From the NCBI RefSeq assembly GCF_056712565.1, contig NZ_CM160072.1: a stretch of 64,000 nucleotides of DNA. One strand, given 5' to 3'. Positions 59,334 through 61,551 of the stretch are shown here, in pieces. Position 1 is the first letter of the stretch. Every line of letters starts with the position of its first letter. The notes under the pieces were generated by a model. It saw only the letters and a list, made by a program, of their open reading frames with translations, was not told where the DNA came from and did no database searches. The position numbers and the translations under genes are program-made.

Positions 59334-59777
59334 TCAGGCAGCGTTAATTACAAACTGTTCAATCGCCTGCCGGTTGCTCCAGGACTTAGTGAGCGCCGCC
59401 GCAGCAGACGCATCAAACCACTTGTAAGCCAGATGTTCAGTGAAAACGATCTGGCGCTCGTGCGGAAGCGCAAGACAGAACCATGATTCCGTATTACGCG
59501 TCACGCCCGGCGCATAGCGATGACGTAAATGTGAAAAAATTTCAAACTCTACCGTGCGCTGACAGTCAATTAAGGTCAGTTGTTCAGCGACAACATCAAT
59601 GGTGACCTCTTCCTTTACTTCGCGCATGGCAGCTTGCGGCGCGGTTTCACCCTCTTCCACGCTGCCGGTTACCGACTGCCAGAAATCGGGATCGTCACGC
59701 CGCTGCAACATCAGCACCCGTTTCGTATCTTGTGCGTAGATGACCACTAAGATCGAAACGGGACGCTTATAAGCCAT
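59334..59777 (-). CDS. nudB: Dihydroneopterin triphosphate pyrophosphatase (Nudix)
   Basis: 147-aa [61 protein letters not shown] (Nudix box); start 1 nt after aspS stop. Confidence 0.8.
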
Positions 59778-59778
59778 A

Positions 59779-61551
59779 TCAGTTATTCTCAGCCTTCTTC
59801 ACAACCTGAATGCTCAGCTCAGCCAGTGCAGTCGGGTTAGCAAAGCTCGGTGCTTCAGTCATCAGACACGCTGCCGCCGTGGTTTTCGGGAAGGCGATAA
59901 CGTCACGGATATTGTCGGTGCCGGTCAGCAGCATCGTCAGACGGTCAAGACCGAATGCCAGACCTGCGTGCGGCGGAGTACCGTATTTCAGGGCGTCGAG
60001 CAGGAAGCCGAATTTCTCGCGCTGTTCCTCTTCGTTGATACCCAGAATACCAAACACCGTCTGCTGCATATCACCATTATGGATACGCACAGAACCACCG
60101 CCCACTTCGTAACCATTGATGACCATATCGTAAGCGTTAGCCACCGCATTTTCCGGTGCAGCTTTCAGTTCTGCTGCCGTCATGTCTTTCGGTGAGGTGA
60201 ACGGATGGTGCATTGCTGTCAGGCCGCCTTCACCGTCGTCTTCAAACATCGGGAAGTCGATAACCCACAGCGGTGCCCATTTGCTTTCGTCGGTCAGACC
60301 AAGGTCTTTACCCACTTTCAGGCGCAGTGCGCCCATCGCGTCGGCAACAATTTTCTTGTTGTCGGCACCGAAGAAAATCATATCGCCATCTTGCGCGCCA
60401 GTACGCTCCAGGATGGCTTCGATGATTTCTGCATTAAGGAACTTCGCTACCGGGCTATTGATACCTTCCAGACCTTTCGCGCGTTCGTTAACTTTGATGT
60501 AAGCCAGACCTTTCGCGCCGTAGATTTTAACGAAGTTACCGTATTCGTCGATCTGCTTACGGGTCAACGATGCGCCGCCCGGAACACGCAGAGCGGCAAC
60601 ACGGCCTTTCGGATCGTTCGCCGGACCTGCAAATACTGCAAACTCAACAGATTTCAGCAGATCGGCAACGTCGGTCAGTTCCATCGGGTTACGCAGATCC
60701 GGTTTATCAGAACCATAACGGCGTTCTGCTTCTGCAAAGGTCATTACCGGGAAATCGCCCAGATCCACGCCCTTCACTTCCAGCCACAGATGACGCACCA
60801 GCGCTTCCATCACTTCACGCACTTGCGGCGCGGTCATGAAAGAAGTTTCCACATCGATCTGAGTAAATTCAGGCTGACGGTCAGCACGCAGGTCTTCGTC
60901 ACGGAAGCATTTAACGATCTGATAGTAGCGGTCAAAGCCGGACATCATCAGTAGCTGTTTGAACAACTGCGGGGATTGCGGCAGCGCGTAGAATTTACCT
61001 TTGTGCACACGAGAAGGCACCAGGTAGTCACGCGCGCCTTCCGGCGTGGCTTTGGTCAGCATCGGAGTTTCGATGTCGAGGAAGCCGTGGTCATCCATAA
61101 AACGGCGCACCAGGCTGGTGATTTTAGCGCGGGTTTTCAGGCGCTGAGCCATTTCCGGGCGACGCAGGTCGAGGTAGCGGTATTTCAGACGCGCTTCTTC
61201 GGTGTTGACGTGGTTAGAGTCAAGCGGCAGAACATCTGCACGATTGATGATAGTCAGCGAGGACGCCAGTACTTCGATTTCGCCAGTCGCCATATCGCGG
61301 TTAATATTTTTTTCGTCACGCGCACGTACGGTGCCCGTGACCTGAATGCAGAACTCATTACGCAGTTCAGAGGCCAGCTTTAACGCGTCCGCACGATCCG
61401 GATCGAAAAATACCTGCACGATACCTTCGCGGTCGCGCATATCGATGAAGATCAGGCTACCAAGATCACGACGACGGTTGACCCAACCACACAGAGTCAC
61501 CTGCTGCCCCACGTGGGACAAACGGAGCTGTCCACAATATTCTGTACGCAT
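59779..61551 (-). CDS. aspS: Aspartate--tRNA ligase
   Basis: 590-aa class-II aa[36 protein letters not shown]... Confidence 0.95.

Follow-up and report, generated by a model that had tools for sequence, protein, structure and literature searches.

ERIC elements (also IRU or RU-1) are already documented as repeats with about 30 copies in Escherichia coli K-12 according to the literature, with TA at their flanks (PMC3184786), with co-transcription alongside their neighbors, and with occasional fusion to open reading frames (ORFs). The four RU-1 fusions with host ORFs described in the text of Delihas (2007; PMC2759123) are a C-terminal extension of the amidase ECA3499, a truncated C-terminal fusion in the L-threonine 3-dehydrogenase ECA0168, and the hypothetical ORFs YPO3245 and PLU3667, each formed by fusion to a conserved motif. 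In Yersinia, ERICs modulate the levels of the mRNAs with which they are co-transcribed (De Gregorio et al., 2005, as related in PMC10969869 and PMC3184786). Here we describe how this family bears on the junction between aspS and nudB in a 64,000-nucleotide stretch of E. coli DNA (NCBI RefSeq assembly GCF_056712565.1, contig NZ_CM160072.1), called the window below. The junction itself is an ordinary operonic stop-start junction, at a locus already treated as an operon. We consider it probable that the window carries the ancestral, ERIC-free junction, in which nudB is transcribed in an operon from the aspS promoter, begins at AUG 59777 and is coupled to aspS by re-initiation, and that the K-12 version of this junction has been altered by an ERIC.

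An earlier note on this DNA, made from the sequence, had drawn attention to the one-nucleotide spacing that separates the aspS stop from the nudB start. This spacing is real: read on the minus strand, the junction runs GTG AAG AAG GCT GAG AAT AAC TGA T ATG GCT TAT AAG CGT CCC, with TGA at 59781..59779, T at 59778 and ATG at 59777..59775. The nudB frame is closed by a TGA 24 nt ahead of the ATG, with no ATG, GTG or TTG in between. Over 601 nt, the region around the junction is 100% identical to that of E. coli strain HS13-1. The features of the locus, all on the minus strand, are as follows.

59779..61551, minus strand: aspS coding sequence, aspartate--tRNA ligase, 590 aa (from the ORF list; annotated as aspS in the 100%-identical HS13-1)
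59786..59800, minus strand: purine-rich GAAGAAGGCTGAGAA at the aspS 3' end, the only sequence upstream of the nudB ATG that resembles a Shine-Dalgarno (SD) sequence, weak and distant
59784..59786, minus strand: ATA, the nudB start given by RefSeq (PGAP) in ERIC-less genomes (150 aa, MTDMAYK...), judged incorrect
59779..59781, minus strand: TGA stop of aspS (from the sequence and the ORF end)
59778..59778, minus strand: lone spacer T that separates the two genes (from the sequence; a 1-nt gap likewise in 66 of 80 Enterobacteriaceae species)
59775..59777, minus strand: ATG, the supported nudB start (first start codon past the in-frame stop; conservation)
59768..59771, minus strand: TATA, running from nudB codon 3 (TAT) one base into codon 4, the vacant ERIC target site (from alignments of empty and filled alleles)
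59334..59777, minus strand: nudB coding sequence, dihydroneopterin triphosphate diphosphatase, 147 aa, MAYKRPVS... (from the ORF list, NF006961 and 2O1C)
58565..59305, minus strand: yebC, which follows in the unit 28 nt past the nudB stop (from the sequence, the ORF list and the HS13-1 annotation)
58009..58533, minus strand: ruvC, the last gene of the unit (from the ORF list and the HS13-1 annotation)

The locus of K-12 MG1655 (b1866-b1863) has the same genes in the same order and on the same strand, with flanks 99.3% identical over the 601 nt compared. It differs at the junction: K-12 has a 117-nt gap with an ERIC, a GTG start and a NudB of 150 aa, whereas in the window the element is absent, the gap is 1 nt, and nudB starts at ATG and encodes a NudB of 147 aa. 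On the K-12 sequence (L001), aspS ends at L001:1622 and the annotated nudB GTG is at L001:1740. The matched junction span is 726 nt in many E. coli, including K-12 MG1655, versus 601 nt in the window, and the K-12 and window sequences are collinear but for 125 extra bases in K-12 directly past ATG(A/G)CT. The earlier note had described the K-12 protein as a few residues longer and had proposed an alignment of N-termini; the difference is indeed three residues, MKDKVYKRPVS in K-12 corresponding to MAYKRPVS in the window, and YKRPVS is conserved across the genomes compared. What sets K-12 apart in these alignments is an ERIC inserted in nudB codon 3 with a new GTG start, and not the use of another start on the same sequence.

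Over its whole length the K-12 insert (L001:1632-1758) can be aligned with the consensus of the 127-bp E. coli ERIC (IRU, RU-1) given by Delihas (2007; PMC2759123, Table 1a), whose ends are TATAC...GTATA. Identity is 99/127 with zero gaps, compared with 54% in the opposite orientation. The insert further resembles ERIC elements in its long hairpin, its TA/TATA flanks and its position in a transcribed region. As RNA, the K-12 ERIC is predicted to fold into a long hairpin with a minimum free energy of -61.6 kcal/mol (z = -4.2), equaled by 0 of 200 shuffled sequences. A consensus hairpin over six lineages has 43 pairs, with 13 one-sided changes that preserve pairing and 5 broken cells; the six lineages hold no compensatory pairs, so that a selected structure is not proven by this comparison. 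No repeat feature for a full-length ERIC is annotated at aspS-nudB in NC_000913.3, positions 1948633..1948749 (L087).

The K-12 GTG start, a GAGG SD and the K-D-K-V codons all lie within the right end of the element. This end reads GCAGCTGCAGC TTG AAA TAT GAC GGG TAT A in the ERIC consensus and GAAGAGGCAGC GTG AAG GAT AAA GTG TAT A in the nudB copy, whose right-end sequence includes GTGAAGGATAAAGTG. The element thus already carried an in-frame TTG, and in the nudB copy the start has improved and a genuine SD is present. GTG-AAG-GAT-AAA-GTG and GAGG are common to all ERIC-type and Salmonella copies of the insert, and Intestinirhabdus differs. The K-12 gene would have survived with a right end of ERIC that supplied, in frame, the GAGG SD, the GTG start and four codons (KDKV); the insertion was probably tolerated because the element brings its own ribosome-binding site and start codon. 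The old ATG now stands 116 nt from nudB in K-12 and persists there as a short upstream ORF (uORF). An ATG in the center of the ERIC, which would give a product of 169 aa (P0005), is unlikely as a conserved start; Salmonella diarizonae has no nudB-frame ATG upstream of its GTG.

In contrast to the fusions described by Delihas (2007), the nudB ERIC replaces the ribosome-binding site, start codon and first residues of a conserved, characterized enzyme, and it is polymorphic within a species. That paper (PMC2759123) makes no mention of nudB, ntpA or b1865, and in the literature searched nudB or ntpA was not mentioned together with ERIC. We found no description of an ERIC that takes over the ribosome-binding site, start and first residues of nudB and is polymorphic in E. 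coli; the main ERIC papers were outside this search and an earlier report is possible.

Alignments of empty and filled alleles place the insertion at the TATA of codon 3. An empty Enterobacter site reads ATGGCATATAAGCGT and a filled Pseudenterobacter site reads ATGGCATATA[TACAC...GTGTATA]AGCGT, so that relative to empty Enterobacter a copy of TA/TATA stands on either side of the insert, as in a target-site duplication and in agreement with the TA flanks reported for ERIC-type elements. The left TA copy has decayed in K-12, Escherichia albertii, Citrobacter and Salmonella. The filled allele is present in 3753 of 5426 complete E. coli genomes (69%), and the rest (about 31%) are empty like the window. 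The same 125-bp ERIC is found in E. albertii, Pseudenterobacter timonensis and three Citrobacter species. Two Salmonella subspecies (diarizonae, L034, and arizonae, L081) have the ERIC ends around a different center, with 116-117 nt from the aspS stop to the Tyr codon, and Intestinirhabdus alba (L047) has a shorter derivative of the insert at the TA, with 84 nt over the same interval. All nine filled lineages keep the old ATG 1 nt past the aspS stop. Across the 64 kb of the window no match to ERIC was better than chance, and the aspS-nudB site is uninterrupted. A second near-identical copy of the nudB ERIC was found in none of the 5426 E. coli genomes (at megablast sensitivity, a search for near-identical copies).

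The nudB ERIC (compared in K-12 L001:1632-1758, L006, L012, L050, L052 and L057) is 92.6-94.3% identical among K-12, Citrobacter and Pseudenterobacter, whereas the flanking third-codon positions are only about 56-68% identical. K-12 and E. albertii show the reverse, with an ERIC only 88.5% identical between flanks that are 92-97% identical. The similarity between ERIC copies ends at the element borders, and the four left junction bases differ in every lineage. Either one old insertion, under strong constraint and with lateral spread, or repeated insertion of one master copy could account for this, and the data do not decide between the two.

We compared the locus in 80 species-representative Enterobacteriaceae genomes. 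The distance from the aspS stop to the nudB ATG is 1 nt in 66 of the 80 species and between -1 and +5 in 72; the uninterrupted junctions that depart from 1 nt have a 1-nt overlap (three species), a gap of 0 (one) or a gap of 5 (two), and eight species carry an insertion. The uninterrupted junctions include Enterobacter, Citrobacter, Kluyvera, Kosakonia, Atlantibacter, Lelliottia, Trabulsiella, Phytobacter and other genera, as well as three non-coli Escherichia lineages. At the flanking third-codon positions, the identity of about 56-68% between genera indicates that synonymous sites are saturated, and the 1-nt arrangement is thus conserved more than chance or neutral expectation would allow. 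Because most species are uninterrupted, the filled ones show a TATA-flanked insertion, and the old ATG is kept in them, the tight 1-nt junction is the ancestral state of enteric bacteria and K-12 the derived one.

The same comparison bears on the start of nudB, which the earlier note had thought worth confirming. The ATG is kept in 72 of 72 uninterrupted junctions. Codon 3 is aromatic throughout these species (TAT, TAC, TTC or TTT) and codon 2 varies freely, so coding constraint begins right after the ATG. By this measure ATG 59777 is borne out, and the start of a predicted NudB of 147 aa is confirmed at this codon; the ATA start of RefSeq lacks support from conservation. The product matches the NCBIfam equivalog NF006961 with 245.4 bits (cut-off 103), residues 1-146 falling on profile positions 3-149 of 151. 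Residues 5-150 of PDB 2O1C, the sequence of the E. coli NudB crystal structure, align with window residues 2-147 (E = 2.4e-94), with two differences (L to F and P to S) near the C-terminus. The exact 147-aa sequence (P0003) occurs on 281 contigs in public databases, which hold four N-terminal models of NudB: 147 aa (ATG), 150 aa (ATA), 150 aa (K-12 GTG) and 169 aa (ATG, ERIC center). A GTG at codon 12 of the window ORF is ruled out as a start, YKRPVS upstream of it being conserved in all species. As for published start-site data, the examined supplements of a tetracycline ribosome-profiling paper contained no nudB, b1865 or aspS.

In consensus scans, nothing resembling a terminator or a promoter was found in the last ~700 nt of aspS or near the window junction. 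The sole promoter-like match, at 60551..60524, is within shuffle expectation (1 found, 2.6 expected). The same promoter and terminator scans found nothing at the K-12 junction, ERIC included, and neither the window junction nor that of K-12 matches an Rfam family. With a gap of 1 nt there is no room for a terminator. For K-12 BW25113, Nakahigashi et al. (2014; PMC4378010) treat aspS-nudB-yebC-ruvC as a single operon whose genes differ in translation efficiency, and since BW25113 has the filled allele, co-transcription survives even ERIC. The suggestion that transcription reads through from aspS into nudB is thus supported by the gap, the scans and the K-12 operon, and probably holds for the window; the operon report concerns K-12 only, that is, the ERIC-filled allele.

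Translational coupling, also suggested in the earlier note, is plausible. In their common strand, 1-nt gap, weak SD inside the upstream gene and highly translated upstream gene, aspS and nudB are similar to termination-reinitiation junctions, but the resemblance is one of geometry and conservation only. The duplex of the purine-rich stretch with the anti-SD has an energy of -4.4 kcal/mol, with AAGAAGG paired about 14 nt ahead of the ATG, and 16.5% of positions drawn at random from the window reach at least this strength. The RNA around the window nudB start has no significant structure (z = +0.40). A weak and distant SD, a heavily translated aspS just upstream and a spacing that stays fixed despite saturated synonymous sites together point to coupling, and we take the weak SD and fixed spacing after a heavily translated gene as the classic signature of termination-reinitiation coupling. 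On this model, aspS, nudB, yebC and ruvC would be transcribed together from the aspS promoter; a ribosome that has translated aspS would stop at UGA (59781..59779), and NudB would begin one base on, at AUG 59777. Most nudB initiation would come from terminating ribosomes that re-initiate with low efficiency, as would be fitting where an abundant synthetase precedes an enzyme of low abundance.

Several points weigh against this account of the junction. The scans rest on the sigma-70 consensus, and an internal aspS promoter that departs from it is possible; independent initiation at the weak purine-rich stretch is possible too, as -4.4 kcal/mol is not zero; and direct 1-nt coupling is not indispensable, because the ERIC insertion is tolerated in many lineages. 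On another reading, nudB-yebC-ruvC would be expressed mainly on its own, from a promoter inside aspS and by direct 30S binding, with the spacing a historical accident and no coupling. The purine-rich stretch is present, the unstructured RNA at the start makes direct binding feasible, and alleles filled by ERIC, with their 117-nt gap, are both viable and common. We nevertheless regard independent expression as unlikely, given that the only promoter-like match in the ~700 nt upstream is at chance level, which also fails to bear out the independent nudB promoter that the earlier note had named as a possible refutation. The exact 1-nt spacing also recurs in 66 of the 80 species despite saturation at synonymous sites, and the K-12 genes are described as an operon (PMC4378010). 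The filled alleles also argue against it: in 9 of 9 lineages the old ATG is kept and its uORF ends at or next to the nudB-frame start, which is unexpected if the geometry is irrelevant.

Two further alternatives concern the start codon and the history of the site. An annotated start elsewhere, which the earlier note had also raised as a possible objection, does exist: RefSeq (PGAP) uses ATA 59786..59784, 9 nt upstream of the ATG, giving a 453-nt nudB with an 8-nt overlap with aspS and a 150-aa protein, in each of the five ERIC-less E. coli genomes examined (L002 and L083-L086, HS13-1 among them), and this 150-aa sequence occurs on 392 database contigs. Conservation does not back it. Only 21 of the 72 species have ATA at the homologous position (AAA, ACA, ACG, GAA and others elsewhere), four of the 72 species have an in-frame stop in one of the two codons ahead of the ATG, the ATG 9 nt downstream is invariant, and the NF006961 alignment begins at residue 1 of the 147-aa form. 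It also counts against this start that initiation at ATA is very poor in E. coli. The product is as long as K-12 NudB, but this match is meaningless, because the 150 aa of K-12 include ERIC-encoded residues without a counterpart here. An ATA start is thus hardly credible. It is also improbable, though somewhat less so, that the empty site of the window arose by precise excision of ERIC from a K-12-like filled ancestor and is not ancestral. The filled allele is the E. coli majority, and its presence in E. albertii, Salmonella and some Citrobacter makes a filled Escherichia ancestor conceivable. However, ATG GCT TAT AAG in the window is pristine, identical to the empty site of Citrobacter amalonaticus and close to the cryptic Escherichia lineages (codon 2 = GCT or ACT), whereas the left remnant in filled E. 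coli has decayed to ATG ACT CAA, whose removal would not give back GCT TAT, and a duplication of 2 bp offers little for precise deletion to act on. Excision would in any case alter the history of the junction and not its working.

In the filled alleles, the old ATG may have found another use. It opens a uORF of 20-36 codons in 9 of 9 filled lineages. In the six full-ERIC lineages, the uORF crosses the left arm of the hairpin and ends in CC-ATGA-GC, overlapping a nudB-frame ATG; in S. diarizonae it ends in GC-GTGA-AG, overlapping the GTG start itself, and in Intestinirhabdus in CT-GTGA-AC, overlapping a nudB-frame GTG. The predicted ERIC hairpin holds the GAGG-GTG region in base pairs. In accessibility models, the probability that the SD-to-start region is unpaired is ~0.3 in filled alleles and rises to ~0.5-0.6 with the uORF forced single-stranded, which is suggestive and not decisive. 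We therefore offer only tentatively, and with more doubt than confidence, the idea that the old AUG acts as a relay, in which uORF translation would end at the nudB-frame start (CCAUGA, GCGUGA or CUGUGA) and open the GAGG-GUG hairpin. The K-12 element resembles the Yersinia ERICs, as related in the sources above, in that there too the ERIC is co-transcribed beside a stop codon and its folding is open to translating ribosomes; the K-12 uORF, which begins 1 nt past the aspS stop, enters the element. The two differ in their effect, which in Yersinia falls on the stability of the upstream-gene mRNA through an RNase E site and here is proposed to fall on translation initiation of the downstream gene.

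Some observations concern other parts of the window. At the far end of the unit, ruvC (minus strand, stop 58009..58011) and yebB (plus strand, end 58007) converge so closely that one base lies between their stops, as in K-12; their transcripts must overlap or end inside the opposite gene. The mechanical yebB ORF at 57333..58007 (plus strand) encodes 224 aa from a TTG, compared with an annotated 603 nt (200 aa). At the ruvC start, 58531..58533 (minus strand), a tandem GTG-ATG gives 174 aa, compared with an annotated 173 aa. Rfam matches at gathering score lie at 34185..34329 on both strands (SraC/RyeA, 176 bits, and antisense SdsR/RyeB, 114 bits) and at 18235..18695 on the minus strand (a cspA-type thermoregulator 5' untranslated region, 136 bits).

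The aspS-nudB junction offers a clean, datable case of a miniature mobile element in the 5' end of a conserved housekeeping gene, with both states segregating in one species, and these two states lend themselves to a direct allele swap to study coupling and the function of ERIC. For annotation, RefSeq apparently mis-starts nudB systematically in the ERIC-less allele, which is carried by about 31% of complete E. coli genomes. Matching protein length to K-12 can mislead start-site annotation, K-12 being the derived state at this locus. If the relay is true, the ERIC polymorphism would be a natural switch between direct coupling, as in the window, and hairpin-gated relay coupling, and the two states would give different output of NudB, and possibly of YebC and RuvC, between strains. 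The first five residues of the textbook K-12 enzyme would then be exapted mobile-element sequence.

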